From Psilocybe cubensis (taxonomy: Eukaryota): a DNA stretch of 64,000 nt. The notes under the pieces are model-generated. The model did no database searches. It saw only the letters and a program-made list of their open reading frames with translations, and was not told where the DNA came from. The position numbers and the translations under genes were made by a program. Of this stretch, positions 22,790 through 64,000 are shown piece after piece. The first letter of the stretch is position 1. The number at the start of each line of letters is the position of its first letter. The DNA lies in assembly GCA_017499595.2 (NCBI GenBank), contig CM038999.1, forward strand, positions 496,001-560,000, given 5' to 3'.

Positions 22790-22845
22790 CTCCTGTATCT
22801 ATTTGTCATCACAAAGAAGTCACCACAATTCTATTTTCAAATATG

Positions 22846-22866
22846 CCTGGACTCTTTAAGTCCAGG
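22846..22866 (-). terminator. Helitron 3' subterminal hairpin (rolling-circle termination signal)
   Basis: Perfect 8-bp stem cctggact-cttta-agtccagg about 50 bp downstream of the RepHel stop. On the minus strand it is followed by CATATTT rather than CTRR. Confidence 0.65.
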
Positions 22867-22917
22867 TTTAGGGTGGTAGCATTTTTCTATAAAAGGAAAT
22901 AGGTGGTCTCGTTCGGT

Positions 22918-25900
22918 CTAGATTGGTCTAGATTGTTCGACGTCGGACTTCGCTATGTTGTCCAATCTGTTTAACTCGTTGCGCAGTTCTTCAGGTAACC
23001 GATTGTATATTTTATTCTTAGGGAACCATCGTAGAACTAGTAATCCAGATATGGATTTTACTCTGGAGAGCATTACATATGCACCTTGACCTCTTGCCGT
23101 TAATAAATCAACAATTACCCTATCAAGTGTGCGACCTTGTCCTTTATAGTCTGTGTACGCATACGCTGGTATTAGTGGGACTTGTTTCCGTGTAAAGCTG
23201 TCAAACAATTTGATATGCTTTTGGTATTTAACATCTATTGAAGTCGAAGAAGGGAAAATTGGAACAACATCTTTTTCTAGCCCGTCTACTTGTATTCCAC
23301 AACCTTTGACGTGTACATACACAGCTTTGCAGTATCGACGGTATTTCTCATCCACTTCATATTTTATGTCTGTGACTATACCCTCAGTGCCATTGACTAT
23401 TTTATCATCGAATGCAATGTTTTCTGTTATCATTACTTTCATTCCAATGAAAAGAGGTAGTTTTCCAAGGGCGTCGTTTGTTTTTGTTGAAGGTAGTCTC
23501 CATAATATCTGTTGGAACTCACCTGTAATCCTTTTTTTGTGTCTCTCATCTCGTGAATAGTATATATGTGGTGATATATTTGCTTTTGTTGAATGGTACT
23601 TGATTAGCTTGGCATTCAGGATGTCTCGTACGGCCTTGTTGCCTACAATGATAGGTGCATCTCTGAACAATGCTAGTGTTTTTGGATTAGAAGCCTGTTT
23701 CTGGATAAGTCTGTTATATATATAATGGTAATCTGACTGTTCATTGTCACTTTTAATATTGTTAATATTACTTCTGCAGAGGCCCAATCTTAGTCTATCA
23801 AGAAAAAGGGCATACTTTATGTCTCTTGCGTGTCTTTCGTTTTTGACTAGTTGTATCACTGTTTTTACTTGTCTCCATAGAAATGCGCCATTTAGTTGTG
23901 ATGGTCCTGACACGTTCCGAGCTTCTGCAAAAGACGGGTTCTTCACCAATTCATTTGCATATAATGGCTTTTGTAGAGGGGGTTTTAGTTGTGCGCAGTC
24001 GCCCATAAATATTACATTAATTCCTCCGAATGGTTTATTGCTGTTAACGACGTCATCTCCTTTCCCTTGCCTAATTCTGATAGAGATTTCACTGAGGAAT
24101 TTTGCGCTTATCATTGAGGTCTCGTCTATTATTAAAGTTTTTATGTATTTCCAAATTTGAATTAGTTTAAGTTTATTGGGTTTTGCTTGTGACTGATTTG
24201 CATGAGATACTATCAGTGAGTGTAGTGTTTGTCCTCCGATCAGCACTGCCGCTATTCCGGTCGGTGCTCCTAATAATAACTCATTCCTGCGATGCAAGCG
24301 CTCGAATAACATAATCAGACATTTTATCAAATGGGATTTACCTGTACCGCCAACGCCTGCAATATGAATCAGCAACTGTTCCTTGTTGTCGGTTATGATA
24401 TGGTTACCGATGATTCGGAACGCCTTTAGCTGTTCTGGGTTATTTAAAAGTCCCATTTCTTCTGCGATGTTGTTCATGGTGTCAGTGTCTGTTATTGAAT
24501 TGTAATTATGACTTAAATCATACAAATCCTGGAGTATAGCTTGCTTGGCAATAGGTGCATAGTTCCCATTGCGATATCGTTTGGGTGGCGTAGTTATGTC
24601 GTCTGTGTCGGGTTCATGTAGCATTGCACGTTTTCTTTTTGATTTCATGATGGCGCGATGGCTTGCTAACAGATCATCCACTTCATGTGATGTTAGAGTT
24701 TGTTGGTTTACTGGAACTGATTTTTGATATTCCGTGTCCACAGCAGTTTCCGTTGTATCCAGTGGGAGACACATGTCTAGAAATCTTGAAGTTTCCTCTC
24801 CTATGTTATCTATGGAGTCGTGTAAGTTTGTTGTAAAGTCTTCGTTGGGGTTTTCAATGCATTGGAAGGGATCTGGAGAGTATACATCGTTAGGGTTGAG
24901 GGTGTCTGTATTACCTTCCGTGTCTGTTAATATTATATCCTGTACTTCATCGGACACTACATCCTCGGATGTTTTTCCACGTCTGCGCTGCCTGTGTGCG
25001 TCGCGGGCCTCGCTACATTCTGTCAAAGCTTGCATGTTCTGTATGATGCGCGTGTGTTCTAGTTTCATTGATATCTCGTAGTTATGAAATGTGTCTGTCC
25101 ATGTTTCTGATGGGGTCTTTAAATCTGATATATCCCTCCACGGTTTGAAGAGGAGTAACATGTCCCTTGCCCAGTCATCTTTTAGTTGATCAGACTTCAA
25201 TGGATTCGGAATAGAAGGGCCTAGTATAATTGGTATACAACTTTTTCTTCTGATTGTCATATAATGGGTGAAATACTCAGGGTGCTCGTCGTTTAAGAAT
25301 GATCCTAGACGTACTGCTGTTTCAATGTGTAACATTTCTTTGGTATACCGTTGTTTGATACCCCATGCTACAAAGTCATACAAACACAAATCTATGAATT
25401 TGTCGTTCGCTGGTCTTAAACAATAGTCCAGTCGTTGGTTGGACGCCGTTATGTCTCTGTCACCCATATTTAACTCAACTGACTCTTCGTTTTCTTGTTC
25501 GTTGGTATTGCTTACGTCGTCTAATGTGCTGTTGTTGGGCGTCTGATTGGATTTAGTGTGATGAGACATGCAAAACCTTCTTATACTGTGCCATTTGAGT
25601 ATAGCAAATTTGTGAGATGTGTAGTGGTCGCCTCCGCCTACTAGATAGCTCATTACTTGTGGTTGTGATATTTCCTGTCTGCCCATCATACTATTAACAG
25701 CTGTTATGATGGCACCCACTGTTTGATTGTCTGATATTTCTGATTGATTTGCGGACATTTTGCTGTACGCTTTACTTACAGCATACGACAACGCGGCCAT
25801 ACCTGCATGAACTGGTAGAGATGCCTTTGTTATATAATCAGTAACATAGTACAAGAACGCTTTTGCTGCATCTCCTGACCCTACGAATTTAATGTCCATG

Positions 25901-28779
25901 TTGCACTGCAATAAGAATGATACTATATCAGTGTGTTGCGCTAATCTTGGATGGTGTCTGCGGAGTAGTATCTCTTTTGTTATTTCGTCTAATGTAGTCT
26001 TTTCCAAGGTCTGCCCATTTATACCCATTCTGCAATTATTGTCTGATTTGGATTGACCTCGTTCAAGGTATTTCCAGCACGTTGCTTGGTGCTCGTGCCA
26101 TGCGTACTGATGTAAGATTCGCTCCAGGAAGAAGTCGAACTCGAGCCAAAATTGGTTTATATCGGTATAATTTTGTGGGGAAGGTGATTGTATTACACCT
26201 GGATGAGGATCACCTGTTTCAGTAGATAGTATTCGTCGGGGGTAATCGTTAGTCTGTTGTTCGGATCCTACTGAGTTTGGAAATTCACATTGAATTATAG
26301 ATTCGATCCACATGAACACTCTTGTTTGATAATGTATTGATCGGGTCATTTCATCGCGTAGTTTCTGGGGAGATAAGTGCCCGTGCAACCAAATCAGCAT
26401 GTGGCAATGTAATGTTCCTTTACCTTGTGCCTCGACAGTACCGTAGTACGCTGTACATTTGCCGTATAAACCATTTTCCTCGCGCCCGTATCGTAATATG
26501 ACGTTAATGAAGTTGTTTATCATTAGGTCAAAAAAACGTGCACATCCTGAAGGGTTCCGTGCTGCAAAGAGTGATCTTCTCCATTTCGTCCAGTCCTCTC
26601 CTCGTTCGATACTTTCCAATGAAATATCCTCACCCGCTAACAGACGTACGATAGGGTTGTCCACGTCAGACGGGTTGATAGTGATGAATAGTGTTGGTGT
26701 TCCTTTATTATTAATCAATGCCCTGATTTGGTTACGTAGAGTTAGTTTGTAGCCATCGCTCCCGGGTACGTGTTTTGATACCAGTCTGATCGAAGACAGT
26801 AGTCTAAAAGCTTCTTTTTCTTTTGTTTCTGTTGGTTTGTAATACGGATTTTTCTCACATTCTTTGGTTAAGTGACTTAACATGTCTAAATCGATATTTA
26901 ACAGTTCGTTAGCTATTTTCTTGTGTGACGATTGGGATACCAAGAAACGTAGACTCTGGGACACTAGTGCCTTCCGACATATGTTATAGAAAATAAACGC
27001 GAATTCTGGGTCTTTCGCAAACGGGCTGTCGTCTACTAAAAGAAGATGTTTGAGTTGTTCCTCCATGCTTATTTTAATCTTTCGTCCGGGATGGTAAAAC
27101 CCTCCGATACCCCAAGGGTCCAGATGGGGGAATAACCATGTCAAGATCGATGGATTTTGAAAGTCAGGTACCATACTAGATCCTGTACCAGAAGCCAGGA
27201 ATGGTTTCCCAGTGAGACATCTCTCCAAAGCAGTTGATTTCATAGTCAGGAATGCCTGTGGTGAGTTGTCTCCAGATGTATATCCTACATTTTCCATCAG
27301 TAATTCATTGTATAATTCGTCCTTTGAATTTTCATCCACATTTCGACATGTATAATCTGCGACGGCTGAGCTGATGGCGTCGTTATCGGTCATAGCGCCT
27401 ATATGTACGGCGTGTGGTATACCCTCGTCTTTGTCGTTGTCAAACAAAAGTCTCATATTCTCTTCGCTGTACTCGGTGCTCGCAGAGTATTCTGGATTTT
27501 CGGTTAATAGAAAGTGTATTATTGTCTTTACCCTCGATCTTCGGACTAAGGTAGGTTTATATCTGTGAATGGTCTTACGGTTAGGTAGATCTTTACCGAT
27601 GAATATAGCACACATTGTGTCCCTTATCGTGTCAGACGCAGGTGGTATAACATTGTTCATGCGTATCACGTCTAGCGGTGATACTAGAACGTTTCCTCTT
27701 ATACCTTTCCTAGCTCGACTCAACGTATTTTCGTTGTCGTCTTTGTCTTCTGTTTGTGTGGTGTGGTTCAATCTGCACGTGATTACACTGGACCGTGCTC
27801 GCGAACATAACATCCTGTCGAAGATAGTTGAATGTTCTATCGCCGTCTTCACGGTTTCTGGTAAACTTTCAATTCCATAATACATCCAGTTACACAAAGC
27901 AAATTTAGGCATAGTGAAGGCCGCTAGTGCTTTGTCACATTTTGGACAGAGACATAGCTTGCCAATACGATCACGGTATTCCATGCCTTTATAATGCAGT
28001 ATGGCCTTTCTGTAAATCTTGATATCATAAGTCTTAGGTAAAATTGAATCTGGCAAGTGTGGATTTTGTAGTAGATTCAGCTTGGTATTGTCTGGGTTTA
28101 CCCATATACAATCGCGCTTGAAAAACCTCAAAGCGCATGCCGCGCATACTACATTGGACAGTCTGTCCGTAGACATTTCTTGTTTCCATTCCCGTATAAT
28201 TTTTAATTTTTCATCTTTCCCGATAGGTTTAAGATGATCTTTGTCGATGGGGACCGCTTTAACTCGATTGGGTTGCTGTGATTCTGTAATCGTATCCGCG
28301 CAGTCTATACCAGGATTGTCTTGTGGTGGGTTGTTCAAATTTTCTTTGGCGACAGTTCGTCTTTCAAAATCGAAATTGCCACACCGTTCTTCGAAAATAC
28401 TGAATATATGTTGACGTGGTCTTGCCATGCATTTGAAAACATATATCAAGTTACTGCATTTGCTACTGCATTGGTGTTCAAATATCTTAGCGAATAGTTT
28501 GGGTTTAGTTAAACGGGAAAATTGTATGCCATGGGAATCGGCTATGGCTTTCATGTCATTCATAGTAAAATATCTGAACCAGAACATCAGTACAGAGATA
28601 CTGACAGTGAATACGAGATTTGTAGTGTCATTTATGTGTTTTATAGCGTCATCATGATAAAGCCATATTGTGGTGAACTTGTAATATTCGTTGAAACGTA
28701 ACACTTTAAGTTTTTCTACATATGGACGGCTATATTCGGGTTTGTACCTGTAGATATCGATATCTGAAATTTCGTCCAA
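22918..28779 (-). CDS. Helitron Rep/PIF1 helicase (RepHel) transposase
   Basis: 1953 open codons. N-terminal Cys clusters (CAAC...CPKC), Rep motifs PTLFITINP, HUH YGTVEAQGKGTLHCHMLIW and YVTDYITK. PIF1 motifs GVGGTGKS, LIIDETS, FGGINVIFMGDCAQLKP, YAYTDYKGQGRTL, YVMLSRV. The ORF begins at TTG, so the true start is probably in upstream exons (donors at ~28920 and ~29035). Confidence 0.96.
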   Translation of the reverse strand: MDEISDIDIYRYKPEYSRPYVEKLKVLRFNEYYKFTTIWLYHDDAIKHINDTTNLVFTVSISVLMFWFRYFTMNDMKAIADSHGIQFSRLTKPKLFAKIFEHQCSSKCSNLIYVFKCMARPRQHIFSIFEERCGNFDFERRTVAKENLNNPPQDNPGIDCADTITESQQPNRVKAVPIDKDHLKPIGKDEKLKIIREWKQEMSTDRLSNVVCAACALRFFKRDCIWVNPDNTKLNLLQNPHLPDSILPKTYDIKIYRKAILHYKGMEYRDRIGKLCLCPKCDKALAAFTMPKFALCNWMYYGIESLPETVKTAIEHSTIFDRMLCSRARSSVITCRLNHTTQTEDKDDNENTLSRARKGIRGNVLVSPLDVIRMNNVIPPASDTIRDTMCAIFIGKDLPNRKTIHRYKPTLVRRSRVKTIIHFLLTENPEYSASTEYSEENMRLLFDNDKDEGIPHAVHIGAMTDNDAISSAVADYTCRNVDENSKDELYNELLMENVGYTSGDNSPQAFLTMKSTALERCLTGKPFLASGTGSSMVPDFQNPSILTWLFPHLDPWGIGGFYHPGRKIKISMEEQLKHLLLVDDSPFAKDPEFAFIFYNICRKALVSQSLRFLVSQSSHKKIANELLNIDLDMLSHLTKECEKNPYYKPTETKEKEAFRLLSSIRLVSKHVPGSDGYKLTLRNQIRALINNKGTPTLFITINPSDVDNPIVRLLAGEDISLESIERGEDWTKWRRSLFAARNPSGCARFFDLMINNFINVILRYGREENGLYGKCTAYYGTVEAQGKGTLHCHMLIWLHGHLSPQKLRDEMTRSIHYQTRVFMWIESIIQCEFPNSVGSEQQTNDYPRRILSTETGDPHPGVIQSPSPQNYTDINQFWLEFDFFLERILHQYAWHEHQATCWKYLERGQSKSDNNCRMGINGQTLEKTTLDEITKEILLRRHHPRLAQHTDIVSFLLQCNMDIKFVGSGDAAKAFLYYVTDYITKASLPVHAGMAALSYAVSKAYSKMSANQSEISDNQTVGAIITAVNSMMGRQEISQPQVMSYLVGGGDHYTSHKFAILKWHSIRRFCMSHHTKSNQTPNNSTLDDVSNTNEQENEESVELNMGDRDITASNQRLDYCLRPANDKFIDLCLYDFVAWGIKQRYTKEMLHIETAVRLGSFLNDEHPEYFTHYMTIRRKSCIPIILGPSIPNPLKSDQLKDDWARDMLLLFKPWRDISDLKTPSETWTDTFHNYEISMKLEHTRIIQNMQALTECSEARDAHRQRRRGKTSEDVVSDEVQDIILTDTEGNTDTLNPNDVYSPDPFQCIENPNEDFTTNLHDSIDNIGEETSRFLDMCLPLDTTETAVDTEYQKSVPVNQQTLTSHEVDDLLASHRAIMKSKRKRAMLHEPDTDDITTPPKRYRNGNYAPIAKQAILQDLYDLSHNYNSITDTDTMNNIAEEMGLLNNPEQLKAFRIIGNHIITDNKEQLLIHIAGVGGTGKSHLIKCLIMLFERLHRRNELLLGAPTGIAAVLIGGQTLHSLIVSHANQSQAKPNKLKLIQIWKYIKTLIIDETSMISAKFLSEISIRIRQGKGDDVVNSNKPFGGINVIFMGDCAQLKPPLQKPLYANELVKNPSFAEARNVSGPSQLNGAFLWRQVKTVIQLVKNERHARDIKYALFLDRLRLGLCRSNINNIKSDNEQSDYHYIYNRLIQKQASNPKTLALFRDAPIIVGNKAVRDILNAKLIKYHSTKANISPHIYYSRDERHKKRITGEFQQILWRLPSTKTNDALGKLPLFIGMKVMITENIAFDDKIVNGTEGIVTDIKYEVDEKYRRYCKAVYVHVKGCGIQVDGLEKDVVPIFPSSTSIDVKYQKHIKLFDSFTRKQVPLIPAYAYTDYKGQGRTLDRVIVDLLTARGQGAYVMLSRVKSISGLLVLRWFPKNKIYNRLPEELRNELNRLDNIAKSDVEQSRPI

Positions 28780-29192
28780 CGCGTGAAATCGGAATTAATC
28801 CGTGTCAATTTAAATTCATTTAATATCAAGTTTCAAGTTTAACCAGATTTGAATTGGATACAAGGTGACGAATCGAATTTTTCATCAGCGATAATTCCCA
28901 TAGGTAAAACGATTACTTACCGCGTTGCAGAGTCGACGCTTTCAACGACGATACCGTGTTTTGTGTGTTAATATAAGTGGTCTGCGTTGTGTAATTTGAC
29001 AGATAGTTCTACTATAAGTTTTTGTAAGCGCTCACCATTCTTCAATATATCTGGAAATGGGTCTGTCGGGGCGTTGGTGTTGATTTTATCTGTTCTGGTC
29101 TTTTGTCTTATTTAAATAGGGTGTACTCGTTTATATAGAGTTTTGTCTGTGTATGGTATCTGGTACTGTTACTGAAATTCGTTCAATGATTC

Positions 29193-29604
29193 TTTAATTG
29201 GGTCCAGTCACGAACTGTTCATGTAACACCAAGTAGGCGACACTTTGTCCGCCGTGTGTTGTTATTTTGTTTGGTTGTTAGATCATATGAGTAATAGCAA
29301 CTATCACGCTAACTAGTCAGCACTTTTACCCATCGTGGGAGGAAGTGTACGTGTTTATGTTTACGTGATGACGTATGCAAGTATTACTGTCACTTAGCTT
29401 GTGTTTAATTGGGTCCAGTCACGAACTGCTCACGTAACACCAAGTAAGCAACACTTTGTCCGCCGTGTGTTGTTATTTTGTTTGGTTGTCAGATCATATG
29501 AGTAATAGCAACTATCACGCTAACTAGCCAGCACTTTTACCCATCGTGGGAGGAAGTGTACGTGCTTATGTTTACGTGATGATGTATGCAAGTCTTAGCT
29601 CGTG
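29193..29604 (+). repeat. Tandem duplication, period 211 bp, two near-identical copies
   Basis: tttaattgggtccagtcacgaactg... starts at 29193 and at 29404, with only scattered substitutions through ...gtatgcaagt. Confidence 0.92.
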
Positions 29605-29717
29605 TTGTAAGTGACGGTGTATTGCATTCTGAGTCTCTTTATGTGTAAACCGCGACGTAGATTTAAGGTCAGGTCGTCAGACAGAGTCAGTGTGCACAAG
29701 TTCACAGCTCCATTGTT

Positions 29718-31032
29718 ATGGCGAATCTTGGTGAGCGCCTCAAATGTCGCGGTTTGTTGTGTTTGTAATGTTATGATAGAGATTCATAGGTTCTCTCCCG
29801 CTCGAATTCTTATTCTTGATGTGCAGGAGCGACTACTCGCTAAGGATTCGCGGCGTTTTGTTCTCTTTCCCATTCGGTACATTAAGGTGTTGTTGTTAAT
29901 GTAACATTTTTTCCTTCGGGACTAACTTTGTTTGAATTGCCTTGGAACTGCCCTGTTCAGATTTGGAAAGCATACTTGCATGCTGTGACGACGTTATGGG
30001 AAGCACGTTGTGCTGGTTTATCACGTGACTCTAAGGATTGGACTGAGTGTCTGTCATTCCAACAACGATGCGGTGGCATCTTCTTTTTCAAACTTTCTAT
30101 TGCTTCTCATGGGATACATAAGCGACTATTGGATATAATCTCCAAAGAAATTACAGTCCCAGAAGCACATTGCTATTTCAGTTTCCAGTCGGTCAAGTGG
30201 GTGTGAATTTTTTATACATGGATTTATCTCAGGATTCGATTAACAACGTTCTAACAGTGAAAACGTCCACCAGGAGGCGATGGCCAAGATTACGCACGGT
30301 CTCACAGGAATTCGAATGGACGATTGCGTCGATGAATGGGAACTCTTGCGTCCAAAGGAAAAATTTATGAATATTTGGACGAGATCTTCCGTGTATCCTT
30401 TCTCTGAGAGGTTGCTCGTTTTTATATTCATTCAAGGAATATTTGGTATTTCTCTGTCCCGGCTTCTACAATGGTTTTCTGGCAAAGATTACCTCCCAAC
30501 TATGGTATCTACTTACACCCGGATCTTCAATGACAGGGAATGTCATGTAGACTTTGTCTCGCTGCTTTTTTATCATTTGAAAAGGCGTCCGTTAACCAGT
30601 TTTGTCAACGAATTCGTCGGGACCATTGTTAAAATCGAAAAAAAATTCGGCAGTGGTATGATAATGGTTTGTTTTTTAATGGTCCGTGTCTGATTAGCAT
30701 GCTGAATATTATAGATTTGCTGGACCTTTCCGAGATAGACATTCCATTAGACGACCTGAATCGGTACGTGGAATGCAAAGCAGACGCCCTTCTGGTGTCT
30801 CTTGGGTACAAGCAATTGTACGGTACATGTAACAAAGTATGACATTGTTTGTCTGAATTTGGGATTCAGTTGACGAGTTTTTAGGGGATCGATGATCTTA
30901 TCCCTATCGTCCCTGGGGAACTGAAAGCTGGTTTTTTTTCTCGAGGAGATGGCGCTGGCGTATATCCCCCCAACTATGGAAGACGCTATTTTAGACGGAC
31001 AGTTCGGTAATCATCTCCTTGACCTTTCTTGA
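29718..31032 (+). CDS. Highly diverged ribonucleotide reductase small (R2/beta) subunit homolog, predicted catalytically dead
   Basis: Six exons collinear with RNR2: ERLLAKDSRRFVLFPIRY / IWKAY...PEAHCYFSFQ / ENVHQEAM...FSERLLVFIFIQGIF...NDRECHVDF...YHLKRRP / YVECKADALLVSLG / KAGFF. A T8 run at 30932-30939 may shift the frame of the final codons. Confidence 0.85.
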
Positions 31033-31333
31033 ACATGTTATATGGTTTATTCATACTTTTTGTTGATGTAATATCTATGTACCCGCTACTGAAGGGTAAA
31101 TCCTAGACACCGTGGAATAATACAACTTCCTGTTGAAATTAAACCCTTGTCATAGAGTTCTGGATGGGAAGGTGAATACTGTTTCATTCCAATTATCCGT
31201 CTGTGGTGATTTTGCGCTCTTTAGACTGTATGCCCAGTATCAATCTCGGAAAACTCCAAGCGCGTGGCAATCTATCAGTTCATATTACTGTGACTATCCA
31301 CCCAACCAATGTCCACTTATTATGCTGTGACTA

Positions 31334-31490
31334 ATGTACTCCCACCCCGCGCCCGCGCAGGCGCAGGCGGCACAGCCCAAAGCACCTGAAAACGAGCTCT
31401 TCTCGTTCGACTTCCACGCACCGTCTCTGGTGCAGAACACGGCTGTGATGGAGCAGCCGAAGAAAGACGTGAAGCAGAATATTTTGTCGT
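31334..31490 (+). pseudogene. GC-rich captured exon fragment resembling the C-terminal region of fungal Age2/SMAP-type ArfGAP
   Basis: ENELFSFDFHAP...PKKDVKQNILS, an isolated GC-rich island with no ArfGAP zinc finger nearby. Confidence 0.45.
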
Positions 31491-31676
31491 TTACATTAAT
31501 CAGCGTTTGTACGCTGCCTCTGTTTTCTTGTGATTATGATAGACATTAAAATTTCATGTAGACTGTAGGTTGTACAGACTTTCTCATGCTTGGATTAGGG
31601 TATGTACCTCAATGGGTATCTTGGTATCGCTGTGCTTTTCTATACCGCTTCACTGGCGGACTCGTGTTACTCTAGG

Positions 31677-33500
31677 AGAAGATGGTATGTATGAAGATGT
31701 TCTACGCTTTTGGATGGACAAAGACAAAGAAGGCAACACACCCGACGCGTTGCAGGAGGTTATCGAGCATCTCATGTACCAAGGAAAGGCCTGTCCTCAT
31801 CTATACTCGCTTGTTCTGAGGTTCTTGACCTCGACGCCGGAGCTGCTTAACCGACATCAAACTGGTTTGAAGGACATCCTGGAGCATATCGACGATGTGC
31901 AATTGATTCTCCTTGGGAGTCTTACAAGTTTTGAGTCGAAATGGAGTGGCGAGTGTCGGTTTAATGAAGCAATGGTTGATCAAGACGATCAAGGAAAGTA
32001 GGAGTGAAATTCAGAATGTAAGTTTCCCTTTCTATTTAATCTGTTCGTTGTTTTTCCTTTCGTAGGATCAAGCTCTCACGAAATCGTATCGTCTGGAGAT
32101 CGTTGACAGGATAAAGCAATTTGCTGAATTGACAAACACAGAAGAGTCTCGGGTGTTCTATGACAAGGTGCTCCAGTTACATCGACCAGCTCGATCTTCC
32201 CAGCGTGCACTTCATGTGTAACCGTTCTTATCATCCATGGTATGTATTGTGTGTATATCTTCTTCTGCGTGTCTTCTGTACGTGTATTCCTCTAATTGCC
32301 ATTCGCTTGCTCGTAGGTACATCGCGGACGGGCACTGGAAAATGTCAGTGCAATGTCAGTGCGGTCAGTGCATGTCAGTGCATACCACAGCAATGTCAGT
32401 GTAAACTGCAGTGATGTCAGTGCAGTGTCAGTGCATGTTTCAAATCATCTATAAATTGGTCAGGGTGTGTCAGTGCGTCCTGGGTTATGTTAGTGCGTTG
32501 GTTAGTTCATTGTGTGGTGGCAAAGTTTTTACTTGTTAGATTGAAAGTCGTGGGCCGTGAGAAAGTTAACTTAGGGAGGATTAAAACATACAGTCTCGGA
32601 ATTTATGGGCCAGACATGGCTAAATAACAAGATATAGAAGTAGACATATATTTTCTACATTTTCAAATAACGATCCGGTGTACTAAATCAAGCATAGATG
32701 TTGGAAAATGAATGAATTATGCTGGAATCATTAGATAGACGCCTCAGAGTATCCCTGTGTATAAATGATCCAATATGCTTGTTTGACAATGATTTGGGAT
32801 CATACTTGGCTGCAGGCGCAACAATGCTTTGAAATATTGGCCTTAGCTTGGGTGCGGTTTTTTAGTAGGGAGGACGTCCCTATGACACAGCTAAAAGGGA
32901 AAGGGAACTAGAAAGTCCCATCGGTGCATCCTAGTTGAGCAGGTCTTTGGGACAGCTGATGGACCAGAGGTAATTCATACCAGTCTACCTACCTACCATT
33001 GTGTTCTTCGTTTGAAATAAAAGATAACATGATTATAAGGTAAAAATAATGTCAGTGCATCGTCAGTGCACCATTACTGAAAGTCAGTTTATGTCAGTGC
33101 ATGTGAGTGCACCGTCAGTGCATGTGAGTGCATCGTCAGTGCATGTAAGTGCACCGTCAGTGCATGTCAGTGCACAGTCAGTGCAAATGCTTGGCGGTCA
33201 GTGCATGTGTCAGTGCATCAACTCTTGGCAGTCAGTGTTAAAATAATTCTAGGAGGATACTAGATTTCCAGACACTTAAAATCCGGTCAAAATCCATCTA
33301 AGTAATCCTGCAATAAACATAGTTTTATTGTATAGAAGTACAGACTTCAATTTTTTCACAAATCCTAAGTGATGTCAGTGCATGTCAGTGCATAGACATT
33401 ATATTGTCAGTGAATGTCAGTGCCGACGTGCACTTACATGCACTGACATGCACTGACATTTCTTGTTGCCCATCGCGGACAACGAAGTCGGTAATAACAT
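31677..33500 (+). pseudogene. VPS11: Vps11/Pep5 C-terminal fragment (intron-retaining, frameshifted, split by a MITE)
   Basis: MYEDVLRFWMDK...LYSLVLRFLTSTPELL; QVLSRNGVASVGLMKQWL; DQALTKSYRLE; RING remnant TRCSS...LDLPSVHFMCNRSYH. IAD/NE continues across the MITE. Confidence 0.75.
32330..33471. mobile_element. Non-autonomous Mutator-like (MULE) MITE, 1142 bp
   Basis: 9-bp TSD atcgcggac at 32321-32329 and 33472-33480. Imperfect TIRs gggcactggaaaatgtcagtgca / tgcactgacatttcttgttgccc. Dozens of gtcagtgca(t) motifs. Confidence 0.9.
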
Positions 33501-34302
33501 GGAGATTTGTTTGAAGGGCGGTGGTGTTATACCAACGTCTGTCTGTCCGGAATGCGGTGAAGCTAATAGAGGAGTATTTCACATGTTGCTTGACACAAAT
33601 ACTGTAGATTCACGTTTCGAAGGAATCCTCAGGGACATGGGCGTCACTGATCGAGTTTTCTACTGACACAGACAGTGTATCTCATGACAAACGTGGTCTT
33701 ATATTTCTGAACCTGGTGAAATGATAGTTTAAATAAATAAATGTCATATGCAATGAAGCTCATGTACTTTGTACTGAATCGCGAACGATCGCAAAGCAAC
33801 CTCCATCAACTTAAATAATTCCCGTGATTGAAAGGAAGTGGGTTTTGTGGTTTTTTTTTTAATCGCCAAATTTTGGCGCGTTGGGTCGTGTCTCTGCAAC
33901 CATTTACATAAACTCATACGTTTCACGGTCAAATTCGGTCCGCTGATCCTCTTTTTCCTTGTGCAGTTTCCGTGTGGCAATGTTTTGTTTCACGAACTCT
34001 TTCGTTGTTGACCCATGTATCGTTGCTTATGGTCTGCTTTTATATTGAGATAGCCTCCAGGCCTGTGTCTGTCCCGTTTGACTCTGTAAATACCCATTCT
34101 TTACTGTTTCGCTTTCCTTTAAATTTCTACGCTTGTTCTTCGTTGTATCGCTGCTATTGACCATTTTTAACAGTGACATCACTCCTAACCTATCTCTTAC
34201 GTCTGCTGTGCGATTTGTCGTATTGTCGGAGGAGTTAGATGTCGACTCAGTCATTGGCGATAGTTAGTTGCCTGTTTGTGAAGTGTATAAGGTGCGTGTC
34301 TG

Positions 34303-34353
34303 TTTTTTTTTTTTTTTTTTTTAGTTGTATTCTAATCCTCAATACCTGATTAT

Positions 34354-34397
<44 letters not shown>
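34303..34397 (-). repeat. Two poly(T) tracts (20 and 43 nt), possible retroposed poly(A) tails
   Basis: T runs at 34303-34322 and 34355-34397, followed by a duplicated ~31-bp motif cctac.aattgcttaat..catgccttacaa. Confidence 0.75.
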
Positions 34398-34399
<2 letters not shown>

Positions 34400-51688: not shown

Positions 51689-53047
51689 TTAAGAACGATT
51701 AGTATTTTTTCCTCCTCTACCCGATCGAAGCCGGTTTTTGGAATTGGTTTCAGGTGCATCAACATGCACGTAGTCGTCATCTAACACGGGTTCGTCGTTC
51801 ATATTGATGTCTTCCTCTTTCTCGACATGACCTTTCCTTCGATAGGAGTCTTCTTCTTGGTTGTATGAATCATGCAACCTAATCCGTTTTACTGGTCTAG
51901 GAGAATGATCTGGTTAAAAAAAGATACCTTGCGCATTAGATGAATATCGACCATAATAAAGCTTAGCAACTAACCATCTGTGAACTCGACGATGTCCCCG
52001 GCGCAAAGTAAATTGAACGACTCGTCAACGGATGGGAAGAGTGAATGATCGGCTTTAGAATGTATTTGCTCCGGTAATTTCCCTACCCTTACAAATTCTA
52101 TAGGAATGATTTCCGGCCACCAATAGCCACCAGTAACAACAAACCCTAGCTTGAATGTCATCCAAATAATGTCTCCTTGCTTGAAGGTAGGTTCGTTAGA
52201 GTCCGCAAGACTGCTAATTCGATTTTCCGTAAATTCAAAGTATTTCGGTCTGTCTGGGTTCGGTATTTGATGAGCTTCAGGGAATCGTGTTATGCCTTCC
52301 TTCAGCCAAGGGTGAACTTCATAAGGGACTTTATATTCGCCACCCTCTTTGGTATTGAATGCTGAACGGTTCGCGAAAACTCGAGTGTTAATGATATATT
52401 TATCTCTATTAGTCGAGCTGCGACCGTTCTGCCATGGTCTACGAGGTCTGTTCCCTTTGTTAAATCCAGGTTGACGGCATACATGATCTTCAAAAATCTT
52501 CCCGTCATTGGCGGTCATAGAACGGAATTAATATAGTGTAGGAAGATACCTTGATATTGTCCCATATGCTAGTATCGCGGGATGTGTCGAAGGCGTAACT
52601 AAATTTACATTTAAACGATGGTTCATCTTGACTATTAATTGATATGAAAAGTGGTATTAATATACAATGATACTTTACATGCAAATTCACTTACATTTGC
52701 CCGTCAGGTACGCCTTCGGGTGCCTCCTCTCCATACGGTACAAAATTTCCGGTTTCGAGGTCAGTAGTCCATTTCCATATACCCGCGTGTACTAGTACAG
52801 CCACTTTCCCTGTGACAGTGTCACAGACCTGTAAGCGCGGACTATGGTCAACCGATATATTTTGTGATTTAGTATGAGCAGTGAGACTGACTATCCATTT
52901 CGAATTATTTAAACCTGGTCGTGCTACCACCAAAGGGTCGTTCGTATTCAAGGAGATGGCCGCTTTCGTGAAGGTGATGTCCTCTTTTCTTAATTTCTTT
53001 GACTGCCATATAGTCATTATGTCAGATATTTCTTGTGTGTGAGACAT
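51689..53047 (-). CDS. Hypothetical multi-exon protein, beta-rich with acidic/basic tail; possible OB-fold ssDNA-binding protein
   Basis: ORFs 52691-53047, 51970-52518 and 51689-51877 are linked by GT-AG introns. Contains PTFKQGDIIWMTFKLGFVV...IEFVRVG followed by a disordered acidic tail. The fold is inference only. Confidence 0.55.
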
Positions 53048-53397
53048 AATGGAAGTCGAGTGTAAAATGTGATAAGAAGGGGTCGTTCAACTGGTACAAT
53101 CGAATATAACCTGTTGAAGTATATTCTTTTATAGCTGTATCATGTCGTAAAATGTGTCTACAATGCTAAGGCCAATGTTTTTTCAACTTTGGAAGGGTAT
53201 AGTAATCGTGATGATATAATACAATTTGATCCAAATGCGGGATGGTTGTGCTTTTTGCAACGTAATTAAGATTAGTAATATGAGTAATACGTCGCACGTA
53301 AGTGGGAGGATGCTTACGAGCAATTTTCTGACTGATTCGTCGTATATATCATCGTACAGCGAAGAAGTGTTCTGTTGCTACCGAACAATATATTCGA

Positions 53398-54320
53398 ATG
53401 GCCGACCACGACTACGCAAAGGATACTCTTTTCACTTCGATGGCATGTTTACCCCCAAATTTAATCTACCGGATAATGTCGTTCTGTCACTTAGAACAGT
53501 TGATCGCAATGAGAGGGACTTCACGTCTCACTCGAGAAATTGTTCAGTCGTACGTCAGGTACATCTGGGGTTTTGAACCAAGATTCCGACTCTGGTTTTT
53601 CGATGTCCGTGGTTTCCAGCGCAAATTACGCGAATGTCGAGCGATAGTATCGGGATCCCAAGCGGTACAATTCTTTGATAGAACGTATATACCGGACAGC
53701 GACATGGACATCTACACCCATCATAAAAGTGTTCTACGACTCGCAGACTGGATAGCAGGTGAAGGTTACACCTTTGTTTCAGGAGATGTTCAGTACGATT
53801 ACGAAAAATCGTTCAAGACGGATTCTTCGATACCTTTTCGATTGATTCCTAGTAGAAGCTCGATCACAGTGGTTTTAAATTATCGCAAGACGGAAATTTT
53901 ATGGGACGGTACTCAATATTGTCGGTCTATTCAAATTATAGGGGTTGTTGGGTCCCCAATTCGGCATATCCTCCACGAATACCATTCGAGTAAGTACACT
54001 CTTCTGGTAGATGTTCGGATCATTACAGTTAAATAACGGTAGCGGGAGTAATGAACTTCATTTCCGCCACCTTTGCAGTGTCCGTCTTCCCTCGACACAC
54101 TTTCATAGACAGAGAATTCAAGTGTGTGCGCAAAGAAGGCACTGAAAGACAAACACGTTGGATAGAAAAGTATACCAGCCGAGGATTCCGTATTATACAC
54201 GACAGAGAACAACATTTCAAGTTCGATCTTTTAGACACTGTGCGCGATGTCCTGGATACTCAGTGTTGGAGGATAAATTTTGAATGTACGTTTTTTTTCT
54301 TTCTTTCTTTTTTCCTGTAA
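53398..54320 (+). CDS. F-box-like N-terminus plus pol-beta-type nucleotidyltransferase motif protein (3' end may extend to ~54550)
   Basis: LPPNLIYRIMSFC (F-box-like); IVSGSQAVQFFDRTYIPDSDMDIY (GS...DxD); intron at ~53990-54041; VMNFIS...WIEKYTSRGF. Confidence 0.65.
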
Positions 54321-54752
54321 ATCACTTGAGTGTGATCTGACCGTTAATATATTTTAGGTTCGAGTCATCTAATGAACCAACGTCGAGCAGAAGAGAAGTT
54401 GGTCTCTGTACCGTTCTGTGTCATTCGAATACCCGACTCGCAAACGAACTCCGGAACTGTGCGGGTTATACCGTCTCTTCAATGTAAGTGACATTCATAT
54501 CTAGGCGTAATAACTAATCGCAAACAATCCAGTACAATTAACATTACGACGGATAAAATGTCTTGTAGCGCGTGTACAGCAAAACTTACAGACCCGTCAA
54601 TGATCCGACAGATGAAGTGATAGCATTTTCCAATGTTATTTCGAAATTTAAGGCTCATGTGACGTTACGTTCGATAGATTCCATGTTTTTCATCCACCTT
54701 GACATTGTTGTTGGGATTAATACTAGAAACAATTGGTCTGTAGTGATGAAAC

Positions 54753-55290
54753 TTACAATGAGAAAATAGATACGACAGATTCGATTTGATTGATGTTAAA
54801 ATCTATCGGGTGTATACCGTTAACGTCGTATTGGGCAACGACGATGTTACCGTGCCATTGAATGTTGTATATTTTCTCTACACTCTTGTTAACAGGACCG
54901 CTCCGGTCGTTTTTTGACACGATTATCCTAAGATGGTTCCCGAGTCTGAACGCGGTACCTGGAATACAGGTAACTCGGGAGCTGATGGCACCATTTGGGA
55001 ACAGTCTTCCAACGTCGAATACATCCGAAGTTCTGTCGTTAAATGGGGCAATACTCATGAGTTCGATTGAGCCACCTGTAGCGAAAACAATGCAAAGAAC
55101 GCGTCTAGGGGCCTATAGATACGAAGTAAGTTCGGTCATATCTCTAATAGAAGAATAGCATAGATGATACATTTTCAGTGCGTACATTCATTTCGTGTGC
55201 TCTGGCCCTCGTAAATAAATCTTCGTGGTGTGTAATATCCGGTTTCAGGTCGACAGAGTGCTGGTTATATAGTAAGCGAATGGTCATAAA
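54753..55290 (-). CDS. Small hypothetical multi-exon protein
   Basis: ORF with VNKSVEKIYNIQWHGNIVVAQY (N...WxGNhhV pattern recalled from Agaricomycete hypothetical proteins), flanked by splice-like sites. Confidence 0.35.
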
Positions 55291-59133: not shown

Positions 59134-60800
59134 TTAATATTCGATCTGATCTTCTTCATATTCGTTTACGTTCGGTTCTTTGAAGTACGCAAGTCCTAGA
59201 ACGTCTGATGGTCTTGGTCTGTCGAATGGATCGAGACGGGTCATAGTCTTAACCACAGTGTGTACGTCGTTGTCTTTAATTAGTTTCTAATGTATCGAAT
59301 TTAGCGACATGCTCTGGTATTCTTTATTTATTTTGGAATGTACTTACCCTTAATGTATTTGATTTATCTCCGGTTTTTCTGATCGAGTCTGATATACATG
59401 GGGTCGTGTGGTGGGTTGTTGGATCAGGATAAGTGAAAGCATGGCTATATGGTCTCCTTATCTGTGTAATGAGACCGCTTGGGAAGGGTCCTAGAATAGC
59501 GTCGTATAGAAGCGTCTTGTCCCGTTTGTAATATGGTGACCTGGTACAAGAAGGAAAAAGAGGCACACGGGTGAATATTTCCGTTATTATGCAACCTAAC
59601 GAGAAGATATCATTTGGTCTGCCGATTGCTAGACCTATCGAGTCATATGGAACGGGTGAATACATTTGTCATGAATTTACAGTAATTTATTAAAACATTA
59701 CCATAGACCACTTCCGGTGATGCATATTGTTCCGTACGGTCCGTTAGACGTGTTTCCTCGGTAGTGTATCCATAAAATGAAAGTCGTAGTTTAGTTGCTG
59801 CCAGTACTTTCTGTGTATTGAACATGAATGACAGCGCCGTTTGAGTAGTAAGGTAGAGTTTTACCCTTGTGTCGAATTGACCGATGAAAAAGTTATACCA
59901 CTTCTCTTCGATCACGTTGCCGTTGACGAAATCTATAGTATCCGGTGATATGTCTCTGTGCATTATGCTGTGTTCGTGTATGCCTAAAGAGTTTTTAGTT
60001 TATGAACAGTAAGTCGTTGAGCTGTTACTGACTGTCGATTGCGTGCAATAGTTGGGATACAATTTCTTTTTTGTGTCGCTCGGATAAGTAAAGCTCTGGG
60101 GTTGACAGAACTTCTCTTAATGTTCTTGTCGGTGCCTCGAATACCAAGTAGTAATAAATTTTATCGGTGTGGTATCCCATTAACTTGGATATTCTAAGAG
60201 GCAACAGATTTTCAAGCGTCATTGATCATGGTCATTGCCACTTACCTTCCACTGCTTTCCCCTATCGCTCGAAGCCATTCACACTCAGTGGCTATCATAA
60301 TGTCCGTGGCTCGGGTCCGACAAACCGTTCTTACTATTTTCATGGTCTTGTCTATAATGTCCTTTGCTTGCACTAGCTGGGACGATCTGCCTTCGTGTAG
60401 GATATGTTTAATCGTATCTGGGTATTACGGCGTCGGACTTGTTAATGTCATGTATGTCATAATCTCGTGTTATACGCTCACAACGATTGCATAACATTTT
60501 ATTCTGTGGGAACCTATATAAAGCGGATTGTAAATGTCATGGAATGTTATTCCTGAGTGTGTTACATACCTCGGAGGTGTGTTGATAGTCCACAATATCT
60601 CTGGCATAGTTGTACCTTGTATACGTAGAGTGTTTACTATGCGTGAGTCTTATGTATTTTTCGGAGTCGGTTATCGGTTCGAACCAGCCGGTCGAAGGGG
60701 TGCGTATAATACAATTCCGTCGTAGACTTTCAGACTGTGATATACGCGTGAGTTTTCCGTTACTCTCCTGTTGATGTCTGCGGTGAGACCTGTGCGAAGT
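59134..60800 (-). CDS. CMGC/CLK-like pseudokinase, multi-exon (start uncertain)
   Basis: HILHEGRSSQLV (degenerate G-loop), KIVR for VAIK, YYYLVFE, HRDISPDT, SFYG for DFG, TEQYASPEVV, DIFSLGCIITEIFTRVPLFP, LDPFDRP. Stop at 59134-59136. Confidence 0.75.
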
Positions 60801-61356
60801 ACTATGGTAAATGATTATTGGTCGTGATGGGAAAATCTGAAATCTGATATAGAACAAAATGCTCGTAATGTAAATTTAATCATTTGATGACCGTTCGTTG
60901 AACATTCATAAACGTCAGCAACCCGAATAATATTATATTATCATTAAATTTGAATATTTAGGAAAAAAAAAGAAGAAGATGAAGAAAATTGTTTCTTTAC
61001 TATGACCAACGTTTACAGAAACGTAGGGAACGATGAGAGTGTGTATTACTCTTCACTGAGTGGTAAGTGAATGGTCGTATTCTATATTTTCTTATTGATT
61101 AGTCATTAACATTGTCAGTAGTTTTTGTCGTTAGTCAATAGTTTTGACAAACTTAGAACCATGTGGTCCCGGTGGGCAAAAAAGTGTTGATTAGTCAGAA
61201 GGGTGGTCAGTTGATTCGCCACATAACGCGTCATGAACTGGTCACGTAACTGGTCTGGGATTGGATCAGGGTCATCGGGATGACGTGCTATTCGATTGTT
61301 TTGTATTGTTCTTTGTTCGAAAAAAGTTGAATGATGTAGGGTACTATATGCTTATA

Positions 61357-62918
61357 ATGGACCGAACTCCTCTGCGTACCTACGCGAACAGTCGTTTGAT
61401 TAACTACCAGTTCTATTTGGTATGGATGACAATCAGTCATCCAGTGGGTCTGAAAACTTTGTGTATGTTTCTCTGTATTTGTTTGTCGTGTATTTAACTT
61501 GGTTGCAGGTCATCAAATGTCCAGAAGAACGACGTCATAGCAGACGACTGTAAGTAGTTTGATTAACTTACTGTGTTTTCTCTACTTATCATTGTCCTCA
61601 TTTTTTAAATTTTTATTATTATTATTTTGAGATCTTGCCGTCGAACTAATAAATTCCGGATACTCTGGTGAAGTGTGGAGATGCGAAAGTAAAAGCTGTG
61701 CCCGCGTCGTCGCGATTAAAGTTATGTATACCGTCGGTGAGAGTGTGCGGGCCACCCGTGCCGCGCACGTATCTGCATTATTGAAAAATTCTTCATCTGT
61801 GGATGCAAGGTGAGTATTTTCTTCTTTTGGTCGATTCCATTATTCACTGTAGTTCATTGTACTTCAGTTTTATTTGTGGTCTGGCGGAAACTGTCTTTCA
61901 CCTCCGTCATCCTTGTCTCGTATTCGAATTGTATGGAATGAATCTCAAGGAAATGATAACAAAGGAAAATGTGCTTCCCCTTCCTTTGTTCCAAATCAAG
62001 GCCATAATGTGGCAAGTATGTAACGGTGTGGCATGTGAGTGTTTTCAATTTATGGTGATTACTTTGCGTCAGATATTCATGTACATTTAGTCCTACATAA
62101 TACGTTGGATATAGCGCATACGGACATCAAGCCTGAGAACGTCGTTCTCGTCGATGACCAAACGACTACTGTGTCTGATATCAGTCCAGATGGCGCTTTT
62201 TACAACAAAGTACGTCACAATTCTTGTCAATTAGACCATTACAATGCTTAAAGAATACGTGTTTGAAGAACGTTGTGTCTAATGTCCAAATCAAAATCAT
62301 TGACCTCGAAGATTCTGTCACAAGTCCTCGTAACCTCCATTTTGTCCCCGGTACAATGGGGTATCGTGCTCCGGAAGTGTATGGTGGTGGGTATGACGTT
62401 TTCCGATACTCCTTACATTTCTGATTATACGCTTCTATAGGTGTCGGTTGGGGTTTCCCTGTCAATGTCTTCGCTGTCGGATGTTTAACATTCGAGATCT
62501 TTACGGGTTTGTCATTGTTTCCGAAGACAGATGATGTTCGGGAGTATTTTTTCTGTATGGAGAGGCTGCTTGGACATTTCGCTCCGGGTCAGGCTCAAGA
62601 TATCAGTGAAATGCATCCAGCGATATTCCGAACTAAAACTAGGGTCCCGAAAGTCCGTGGCGCAGCAATCAATGCTAAAGTTTGCAACAAGCTTTTGCGC
62701 CATGTGGCCGATGTCAAGTGGTTCAAGGTGTGTTACCTCGAGCGTTCGTGAACCGTGAAGTCTATGATTAAATGCATTGTTAGAAATCAATCAACCAGTC
62801 AGACGCAGTGGAATTTATATCTATGTGTACTGCAGTCGACCCTCATCGCAGACTCACTATCGAATCCGCTCTACGCCATCGGTTTTTCACGAAATTTTCG
62901 CGTGTCAAGTTAAACTAG
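61357..62918 (+). CDS. Divergent CLK/LAMMER-like protein kinase, multi-exon
   Basis: SGYSGEV, VVAIKV, HPCLVFELYG, HTDIKPEN, IKIIDLED, GTMGYRAPEV, VFAVGCLTFEIFTG, EYFFCMERLLG (cf. EHLAMMERILG), DPHRR...ALRHRFF. TAG at 62916-62918. Confidence 0.85.
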
Positions 62919-64000
62919 ATTACTTTCCTGATGCGTATAACCTAAATGGTAGCGTTTCTGTGTCGTCTACAATATATTCCTGTCTTCTCGTTCTCGGTGT
63001 CATCCTCTTAGAGTTTTTATACTGTTTGTGTGTTGTATTAACAAATATAGAATCTTTGGTTGTCCCTCCAGCAACGACTGGGTTGTTTGTGTCATTGTGT
63101 TTTTTGCCCGGATCTAGTTGTATTCAATTCGCTATATGTTTTGACGTGTTAATTATTTATGTACCTCGCTTTTTCGAAGATGCGCCGGTATTCTGTGGCG
63201 TCCTTTCTAGTTCATTGCGGGCGCTGTTAGATGAATTTATGTACGACATATCCAAAGCGTTCGTAGTGGTCTGGATGCATTCCTTTTTTTTTATCGATCC
63301 AGGTCTCACTCGGTCGTTGTACGTCGAAACATTTTCTTTCTTCCCTGAGTATTCTGTGCACGCACAGTGAGAATGATCTTTTACGCACTCCATGAGAGAT
63401 GTGAGTTGAACTGTGTTGAATTGTACATACGAGCGTTGAACTTGTTATTGGATCGGGATGGTAAAGGTAGTATAATGATACCGTTGCTTTCTCGAGGAAA
63501 GAGTTTACACGACGGGATGCATTCGGTGAACATTCTGGTTGAAAGTCAGTGTGTCTTTACGTGTAGTAAACACTCGCTCGTGTAGTCCTGCTCCAGATGT
63601 ATCCACTGGAATTTACCGACATCCATGCCATTGGTGGCCGTGTTACCGATATGGTGTGCATTAGGTTCTGTGCAGTAGCTCCAAGGGTAGTTACTAGTGG
63701 TACACCCTGACCAAGAGTACCGTGGAAATCGGACTTTGCAATGTATCTCGGGTGTGAATATCGTATGCAATTATTTAGTAATTCTCTTTACATTGCTAGT
63801 GTATTTCGGGTGTGTGAGTGTCATGCAGTAATATGTGGTAGTTTCCTTTACGCCACTCTCGACGATATTGACAATCGAGCGCGATACCTTTTCTGTACAT
63901 GTATTTAATGTCGTGAGCTGTAATCTAGTGTAACCGTTTTTATGTCATTGTTTTGAATGGACTGGAATGACCTAGTGTATATTCCGGCGACTCGAGTGGA

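Follow-up and report, generated by a model that had tools for sequence, protein, structure and literature searches.

Helitrons are mobile elements known for picking up fragments of genes. Here we describe an intact, unusually large Helitron from Psilocybe cubensis, found in 64,000 nucleotides of assembly GCA_017499595.2 (contig CM038999.1, positions 496,001 to 560,000, forward strand); this whole stretch is called the window, and coordinates are positions within it. Beside the gene for its transposase, RepHel, lies a gene for the small subunit (R2) of ribonucleotide reductase (RNR2), and the same pairing is found in diverged relatives of the element. Searches of titles and abstracts returned no publication joining Helitrons and ribonucleotide reductase, although supplementary files could hold one, and the literature search found no relevant publication on giant or large Helitrons.

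Among described systems, HELPO1 of Pleurotus ostreatus (Castanera et al., 2014; PMC4289320) is, like the window element, an autonomous Agaricomycete Helitron with a RepHel. In the part of that study drawn on here, HELPO1 carries one to four whole gene-like sequences of unclear origin and is well above 6-7 kb, as is the window element; it has a subterminal hairpin and makes no target duplication. The ends and the cargo differ. HELPO elements have a conserved 3'-CT[A/T]G, whereas the window element lacks CTRR and its boundary falls 2-4 nt past the hairpin. Captured genes in HELPO stand downstream of RepHel, whereas here the cargo is on the RepHel N-terminal side, and the RNR2 of the window, unlike the HELPO cargo, belongs to a known family and is itself retained in diverged elements.

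In its ends, the window element may resemble the Helitron2-type FoHeli of Fusarium oxysporum (Chellapan et al., 2016; PMC5148889), which, in part of that account, has non-canonical ends with terminal hairpins and a short 5' sequence that recurs inverted near the other end, as may hold for the candidate distal end discussed below. The same source describes related Helitron2-type subgroups in which RepHel has opposite orientations relative to the ends. FoHeli is ~5-6 kb long and is presented in those pages without extra genes, whereas the window element is probably ~13 kb long and has RNR2. The FoHeli termini (TCAG.../...ATTTT) also differ from the motif TATKCCTGGAY found here; the likeness concerns end architecture.

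Accessory genes are not new to Helitrons. Sections of Arkhipova and Yushenova (2019; PMC6431247) describe plant and animal Helitrons with RPA-like genes, maize Helitrons of up to 39 kb and fungal Helitrons of up to ~14 kb, and call the capture of full-length genes exceptionally rare. RPA-bearing Helitrons are enlarged by added coding sequence, some with a DNA-metabolism accessory gene, as here; however, ribonucleotide reductase is not among the accessory genes in those sections, and the window has no confirmed RPA or single-stranded DNA-binding (SSB) gene. Starships of the Pezizomycotina, so far as partial descriptions of them go, are likewise large fungal mobile elements with cargo genes, but they use a tyrosine recombinase, occur in ascomycetes and span tens to hundreds of kb, whereas the best-delimited unit in the window is 13 kb.

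RepHel and the hairpin-side boundary

The RepHel frame is uninterrupted over 1958 codons (Table 1), with a start methionine probably near 28560. It matches Helitron_like_N (E 6e-36), DUF6570 (9e-25) and PIF1 (1.2e-22) in Pfam, and the strings HCH (residue 796), YYVTDY (982), GTGKS (1483) and DETSM (1557), which we take to be the catalytic motifs, are intact. The protein thus has both the Rep (HUH, two-tyrosine) domain and the PIF1-type helicase of a Helitron, and the intact transposase described in an initial sequence-only reading of this DNA was confirmed. Three public sequencing runs (X1, X9 and X12) each contain one RepHel copy at >=85% likeness. No RepHel fragment was found elsewhere in the window (best E 0.03), and the RepHel scan found no relatives in viral contigs. 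A Starship captain (tyrosine recombinase, DUF3435) had no Pfam match in the frames scanned, which comprise four of six frames of 28.8-43.8 kb, the three plus-strand frames of 43.8-52.0 kb and 20 of 51 frames of >=90 amino acids.

Just beyond the RepHel stop lies a hairpin (22866-22846, CCTGGACT-TAAAG-AGTCCAGG) that starts 57 nt past the end of a KDZ transposase frame (22789) and ends 52 nt before the RepHel stop. The same sequence-only reading had placed it ~50 bp after the KDZ stop. Its predicted DNA fold (-8.5 kcal/mol, z score -3.7) was equalled by none of 200 shuffles. The element thus has a Helitron-like hairpin near one terminus, but not the canonical Helitron1 ends (5'-TC and 3'-CTRR, with the hairpin 10-12 nt before CTRR): the RepHel-sense sequence after the hairpin, ...GTCCAGGCATATTTG, contains no CTRR, and the nearest CTAG is in the RepHel stop region, on the near side of the hairpin.

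Public sequencing runs place an element boundary at this hairpin. Nine runs contain at least half of the sampled words of 28.8-38.8 kb, and four of them (X1, X9, X10 and X12) were mapped on 20001-40000 at 85% likeness. In X1, a contig covering 20183-22871 (depth 14.2, 0 differences) and one covering 22844-29269 (depth 90.3, 9 differences) share an overlap of just 28 nt (22844-22871), so the haplotypes part at ~22841-22844. In X9, depth is 7.2 on the KDZ side and 24.9 on the Helitron side. In X12, for which raw reads in both directions were summed, depth is 0-9.8 up to 22668 and 47-88 over 22669-32006. The left, KDZ-bearing flank is therefore polymorphic between strains and changes exactly at the hairpin. 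The hairpin end at ~22842 is a real element boundary, and this part of the initial interpretation is supported.

Related elements were sought in metagenome contigs with RepHel, which gave 21 loci (numbered L001 onward), and window frames were compared with them by tblastn and tblastx. The closest relative of the window RepHel is in L006 (53% identical), followed by L004 (contig Ga0247741_1000195, 47%), L001 and L011 (44% each) and the more distant L002 (34%); the RepHels of L001 and L011 share 59% identity. L009, from a sister metagenome, holds the element of L011 (99.4% identical) with an added 1.49-kb insertion inside RepHel (14481-15968) that shows recent insertional inactivation of one allele or copy.

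The terminal motif TATKCCTGGAY occurs exactly, once each, in six of the 21 loci, representing five independent elements (L002, L003, L006, L007 and L009/L011), and once in the window; we estimate a chance expectation of ~0.4 in the ~380 kb of all 21 loci together. An inverted repeat adjoins the motif in every case. Four of the five hairpins folded, including that of the window, have z scores of -3.7 to -4.65 (L002, L003 and L006, -3.75 to -4.65), and that of L011 is weak (z -1.5). In the window and in L006, the motif is on the RepHel C-terminal side and points inward, with the RepHel-sense end ...GTCCAGGCATA; in L002, L003, L007 and L011 it lies upstream of RepHel. Comparison of L003 with L007 (94% identical) puts the start of similarity at the motif, GTATTCCTGGAYGC-TGTAA-GCRTTCCAGG, ~480 bp upstream of RepHel. 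At the other end, L005 and L011 share 85% identity over the 3' half of RepHel and part ~55 nt after it (...GGTACTARATCTC), which fixes the 3' end of L011; past this point, L005 continues into DNA with a Ty3-type gag gene ~5 kb on. No exact 32-nt copy of the window's hairpin end was present in the metagenome contigs scanned.

A ribonucleotide reductase small-subunit gene beside RepHel

The RNR2-like gene stands head-to-head with RepHel. A spliced gene for this subunit had been proposed from the open reading frames, and two lines of evidence bear this out: PF00268 matches fall in two exons (E 4.4e-13 and E 3.2e-08), and alignment to a cellular R2 protein (P0041) gives introns separating four exons. 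The window copy lacks what is expected of a class Ia R2, which has di-iron ligands and a radical tyrosine. Relative to P0041, it reads ASHGI for ASDGI, ENVHQEAMA for ENIHSETYS and IQGIF for VEGIF, and it has no match to the C-terminal tail. The resulting substitutions, D to H, Y to A and E to Q, fall at what are presumably the radical tyrosine and two metal ligands, so that the window R2 is, judged from its residues, probably a relic or a non-catalytic partner.

The related elements differ in this respect. The R2 genes of L001 and L011 keep all catalytic motifs (ENIHSEMY, VEGIFF and RDEGMH). Between the two, identity is 68-74%; none of the 118 other proteins among the best 120 listed from 5.8 billion exceeds 59% identity to them. 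In a FastTree phylogeny, read without taking support values into account, the two form a group apart from the Agaricomycete R2 cluster; the branches of the window and L004 copies are too long and divergent to place. The L004 copy is badly degenerate, and the RepHel of the same locus has two in-frame stops (11228-11230 and 11936-11938).

RNR2 lies directly upstream of RepHel on the divergent strand in L001, L004 and L009/L011, that is, in all three independent elements of the 42-47% identity clade that have upstream sequence, and beside RepHel in none of six loci of more distant clades (L002, L003, L007, L008, L012 and L014). The expectation that the cargo genes would co-occur with this RepHel clade at unrelated loci is therefore borne out for RNR2; homologs of the more distal genes of the window also lie near RepHel in L004.

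The distal end and the extent of the element

We lean, with reservations, towards an autonomous Helitron of ~13.2 kb that runs from ~22842 to 36030-36080 and consists of 12.0 kb plus a nested 1.14-kb miniature inverted-repeat transposable element (MITE). RepHel would nick the terminal motifs and move the segment by rolling-circle transposition. One end would be TATG plus the hairpin motif common to related fungal elements, and the other a short inverted copy of hairpin-adjacent sequence, in the manner of Helitron2.

Two observations coincide near 36.03 kb. One is the sequence TCCAGGTTTAAGGTG at 36026-36012, which begins with TC in the RepHel sense and is the top-scoring inverted match to the terminal 79 nt within 28.8-64 kb; 14 nt further in lies TACGCCTGGTC, which resembles the terminal motif with 2 mismatches. 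The other comes from a diverged partial copy (~90% identical) that adds sequencing depth over parts of the element. Extra depth is seen at 22.7-24.0 kb (88 vs ~50 in X12), where 34 of 109 X12 reads have a 2-bp deletion at 24000. It resumes at ~31.82 kb, where X1 contigs break (31808-31837), and continues to 36.0 kb with a gap at 33818-34577 that a depth-12.5 contig of X9 bridges; bin 34008-34674 has no extra depth. It fills bin 35342-36008 and is gone from bin 36009-36675 in X1, X9 and X12. Over 34675-36008, depth is 74.5 and 73.3 in X12, then 50.3 from 36009; the corresponding values are 99.9/96.9 then 89.6 in X1, and 32.6/32.6 then 27.8 in X9. The partial copy, which is indicated by depth over 22.8-24.2 and ~31.8-36.0 kb, fits an internally deleted derivative that retained both ends. 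Because the best inverted match falls inside the ~100-bp interval where this extra depth stops, a coincidence to which we assign a chance of ~1/100, a second boundary is most likely near 36.03 kb. The size also agrees with that of L011, in which the motif lies 6.27 kb upstream of RepHel and the distance from motif to 3' end is 12.1 kb.

Several observations weigh against this assignment. As an asymmetric terminal inverted repeat of Helitron2 type, the match has a score of 25 over 15 nt, within the 21-28 obtained with shuffled queries, and the 36-kb site does not fold into a significant hairpin (z 0.19), so that the distal end rests on its coincidence with a depth step that is itself located only to ~100 bp. 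The two stretches of extra depth are only presumed to belong to a single copy. In X1, one contig (35495-38255, depth 87) passes straight through 36.0 kb; the main haplotype thus has this same right flank, whereas the left flank differs at the hairpin. In its simple version, one element at two loci does not explain this shared right flank. The asymmetry could stem from recombination between the full copy and the partial one, from a tandem arrangement of the other haplotype or from a rearrangement nearby. Finally, genes of the related elements extend past their motifs. In the 10 kb upstream of its RepHel, L004 has in order a kinase, two genes that we call Y and X flanking an F-box/nucleotidyltransferase (NTase) gene, a second F-box/NTase gene and RNR2; their window homologs lie at 62 kb, at 52-55 kb and at 30 kb, so that counterparts of Y, F-box/NTase, X and a kinase, outside the 13-kb element here, are close to RepHel there. 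Two further genes, P and Q, are common to L001 and L011 and straddle the L011 motif. The conserved linkage may thus extend past the ends that the motif defines; in at least some elements such linkage is real, and it may reflect a larger unit, clustered family members or a preferred neighbourhood.

The larger unit is the rival to which we give most weight, although we think it unlikely. The locus would then be one composite rolling-circle unit of at least 40 kb, from 22842 to beyond 62.9 kb with its far end outside the window, carrying RNR2, Y, F-box/NTase, X and the kinases and inflated by nested insertions. In its favour, five genes of the window (RNR2, Y, F-box/NTase, X and kinase-like gene B) have counterparts in L004 within the 10 kb upstream of RepHel; L001 also has a kinase-like stretch ~10 kb upstream, and L011 a weak one, known from a single BLAST match (E 2.5e-4) and no Pfam match. 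No KDZ end reappears in the window, nor, on the initial reading, does the 3' half of the F-box gene. In a strain without the KDZ flank, depth is near single-copy with no drop over 22.8-40 kb; this read evidence, however, reaches 40 kb only. The composite unit must also accommodate the repeat boundary and terminus-like sequence at ~36.0 kb, and up to 64 kb we found neither a second hairpin nor a second TATKCCTGGAC (<=1 mismatch, required strand). The window's Y-F-X block (F, the F-box/NTase gene) and kinase are inverted relative to RepHel-RNR2 as compared with L004, and because the F-box/NTase family is very large (1227 clusters), its presence nearby is weak evidence. The single Helitron of >41 kb, running to 64 kb with >35 kb of cargo, that the sequence alone had suggested is thus disfavoured by the probable boundary near 36.03 kb and by the lack of a terminal motif or RepHel fragment further right; the narrower claim of an element longer than usual fungal Helitrons holds, at ~13 kb against the usual 6-7 kb. 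It is similarly improbable, in our judgement, that RepHel, R2, F-box/NTase, Y, X and kinases together define a family of large Agaricomycete rolling-circle elements of which the window holds an inflated member of at least 40 kb. If they do, such elements would carry a toolkit for deoxynucleoside triphosphate (dNTP) supply, ubiquitin targeting and signalling, like ssDNA and large DNA viruses, and would be rearranged by inversion at hairpin motifs.

The opposite possibility, a compact Helitron of ~6.5 kb that ends in the RepHel-RNR2 intergenic region, with RNR2 and everything rightward forming a conserved gene island, or another element, that this Helitron clade targets repeatedly, seems to us improbable to a greater degree. 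The distant L002/L003/L007 clade is indeed compact, with a 5' hairpin 400-480 bp upstream of RepHel, and the intergenic region of the window contains a 2 x 211-bp repeat. Yet neither a terminal motif nor a hairpin occurs over 28.8-29.7 kb, and contigs branch there only at the tandem repeat. RNR2 identities also rank as RepHel identities do, with L001 and L011 the closest pair (59% RepHel, 68-74% R2), which fits joint inheritance better than repeated targeting. We regard as equally doubtful a vertically inherited host locus, orthologous with that of the L004 organism, in which RepHel is domesticated or stranded and nothing is mobile now. The Y-F-X microsynteny common to the window and L004, the single-copy RepHel and the degenerate RNR2-like genes of both loci would suit such a locus. 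It is hard to square with the occurrence, in two sister metagenomes, of three diverged RepHel and RNR2 elements (L001, L004 and L011) that have unrelated downstream flanks, with the 85% identity of L005 and L011 that stops at a sharp 3' end, or with the strain difference in the left flank of the window element, which falls exactly at the hairpin; a neutral relic would not be expected to keep 1958 codons open. On balance, the ~13-kb Helitron accounts best for the locus.

Surroundings of the element and significance of its R2

The features of the locus are collected in Table 1. Within the ~13-kb Helitron, X1 and X9 contigs break at 29269/29535, in the tandem repeat between RepHel and RNR2. The stretch 32330-33471 is a nested Mutator-like MITE. 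It has imperfect inverted ends starting GGGCA, GTCAGTGCA subterminal repeats and a 9-bp target duplication, ATCGCGGAC; its depth is 4-10 times that of its flanks, and X12 reads have loose ends at 32330 (337 reads) and 33471 (285 reads).

Table 1. Positions of the Helitron, its genes and ends, and the neighbouring genes in the window.
Feature	Position	Strand	Basis or remark
KDZ transposase gene, left flank, outside the Helitron	19440-22789	+	Pfam CxC2 E 4e-36, KDZ E 1.1e-27
RepHel-proximal Helitron terminus	22842-22866		Motif TATGCCTGGAC and 8-bp-stem hairpin; in RepHel sense, hairpin then CATA
RepHel frame	22918-28794	-	Open-reading-frame analysis
Two tandem copies, RepHel-RNR2 intergenic	29193-29597		194 nt aligned, 211-nt spacing, 95% identical
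RNR small-subunit-like gene, spliced, head-to-head with RepHel	29743-30839	+	Pfam PF00268
152-aa open frame of unassigned family, inside the element	31543-32001	+	No significant Pfam match
Nested non-autonomous DNA transposon (MITE), 1142 bp	32330-33471		Mutator-like by target duplication
Candidate distal terminus	35987-36026	-	TCCAGGTTTAAGGTG, 14/15 inverted copy of 22861-22875
Gene Y, outside the 13-kb element	51973-53086	-	Identical (100%) to a UniRef protein of 315 aa named from Psilocybe cubensis
F-box and Pol-beta-type nucleotidyltransferase gene, outside the 13-kb element	53332-54320	+	Family-level support
Gene X, outside the 13-kb element	54756-55112	-	41% identical to L004 5807-6175 (E 4e-21)
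Kinase-like gene A	59324-59999	-	Weak Pkinase, E 0.0039, under cut-off
Kinase-like gene B	61785-62915	+	Weak Pkinase, E 0.047, under cut-off

To the left of the Helitron, the KDZ and CxC2 domains lie at 19.7-21.4 kb. The KDZ flank (20001-22843) has 16-30% of the adjoining Helitron depth in two runs and is absent in the third. The second terminus of the KDZ element had been reported missing, and BLAST likewise found nothing in the window that matches 11200-11700 in inverted orientation; the stretch up to 22843 also lacks an inverted-repeat partner there. Further left, a pair of Arf-family GTPase paralogs is encoded on the minus strand at 6206-7196 and 9425-10793, ~3.4 kb apart (Pfam Arf E 2.5e-21 and 4.5e-21). 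Their flanking direct repeats (6063-6193 and 9445-9575) are 78% identical and their protein frames 38-59% identical, and the pair looks like a local tandem duplication. At 10945-11236 (plus strand) lies the N-terminal part of an Agaricomycete-type F-box-like protein, whose frame ends at GTAAGC, a possible splice donor; the gene may be interrupted by an insertion, as in the initial reading, or may run on past an intron.

To the right, the ~36-64 kb stretch is, on the reading we somewhat prefer, repeat-rich and gene-poor surroundings outside this Helitron copy. Its genes (Y, F-box/NTase, X and the two kinases) would be lineage-specific, with families that recur beside related RepHel elements. 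The absence of any conserved host gene, as first described, stands for the frames scanned, which gave only RNR2 and weak F-box, kinase and, at 50 kb, GNAT matches; coverage was partial. Gene Y is rare (three clusters found, its own included) and 38-48% identical to L004 2771-3851, and its AlphaFold model is unusable (predicted local distance difference test, pLDDT, 35). Pfam assigned no family to Y or X.

The F-box/NTase gene, also proposed at the outset, is borne out at the level of its family. The window copy has a GT..AG intron at ~53990-54041, not a frameshift, as well as the motif SGSQAVQFFDRTYIPDSDMDIY and SGS...DMDIY; its F-box score in Pfam (19.9 bits) is just under the cut-off of 20.5, and that of a relative in L003 is above it at 29 bits. 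The intact L004 homolog (364 aa) was modelled by AlphaFold from a 56-sequence alignment with good confidence (pLDDT 82.8, predicted template modelling score 0.84). Its model matches CCA-adding-type NTases (VIA Z 9.9, root-mean-square deviation 3.6 over 167 aa) and TENT5/FAM46 NTases (VIA Z 6.6), and residues 14-64 match a Skp1-bound F-box (Z 6.2, root-mean-square deviation 2.3 over 48 aa). Foldseek returned no match to this model at E<=0.001, and its weak rows were all Pol-beta-type transferases. We base the NTase assignment on the VIA Z of 9.9 and the G-S...D-x-D motif. The 1227 representative clusters of this family were counted at E<=0.001, and in the Atlas it is assigned to Basidiomycota.

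Where a kinase and a pseudokinase had been described, two kinase-like genes are present, with weak Pfam matches. Gene A has an HRD-type motif in frame and resembles L001 5-310 (E 1.9e-8). Gene B is 38-47% identical to the L004 kinase at 35-930, which itself scores 29.8 bits (Pkinase E 5.2e-7), under the cut-off of 31.7. An SSB-like gene suggested at 46.0-46.8 kb could not be verified: it has no Pfam match and no meaningful Atlas match (best 0.85).

Other candidates were set aside as likely chance: a hairpin-like stretch at 63270-63303, short matches at 52910-53134, and a pair of 9-mers in the kinase frame of L004 that resembles a 3' end. The stretch 38010-39343 has ~2 times the flank depth in X1, X9 and X12 and contains a 41-nt repeat, TTTTGGAAAAAATTTCCCAAAAAATTTGGCGGTGGTCAAAA, twice (38374 and 39031); it is probably one more dispersed repeat. 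Direct repeats of 59-87 nt (3-5 copies, 61-81% identical) occupy 42938-43623, in a GC-richer block (0.50) that adjoins an AT-rich one (0.34, 40-42 kb). In the related loci, a block of P (F-box-like) and Q is inverted relative to RNR2-RepHel between L001 (2763-4817) and L011 (1957-4012), and block inversions upstream of RepHel seem to recur.

Ribonucleotide reductase encoded outside the genomes of cells is typical of viruses. In this RepHel lineage, a whole, intron-bearing R2 gene stays beside RepHel although the transposases are only 44-59% identical, and comparison of the loci shows that R2 is a conserved companion, retained through deep divergence. Retention across such diverged transposases, with catalytic motifs intact in two elements, argues for an accessory role under selection in the element's own interest, of which nucleotide supply for its own replication is the simplest. 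In L001 and L011, the intact R2 of the element would combine with the large subunit of the host and increase dNTP supply during replication, in parallel with large DNA viruses. This lineage may thus offer a testable case of a transposon that uses a virus-like strategy.

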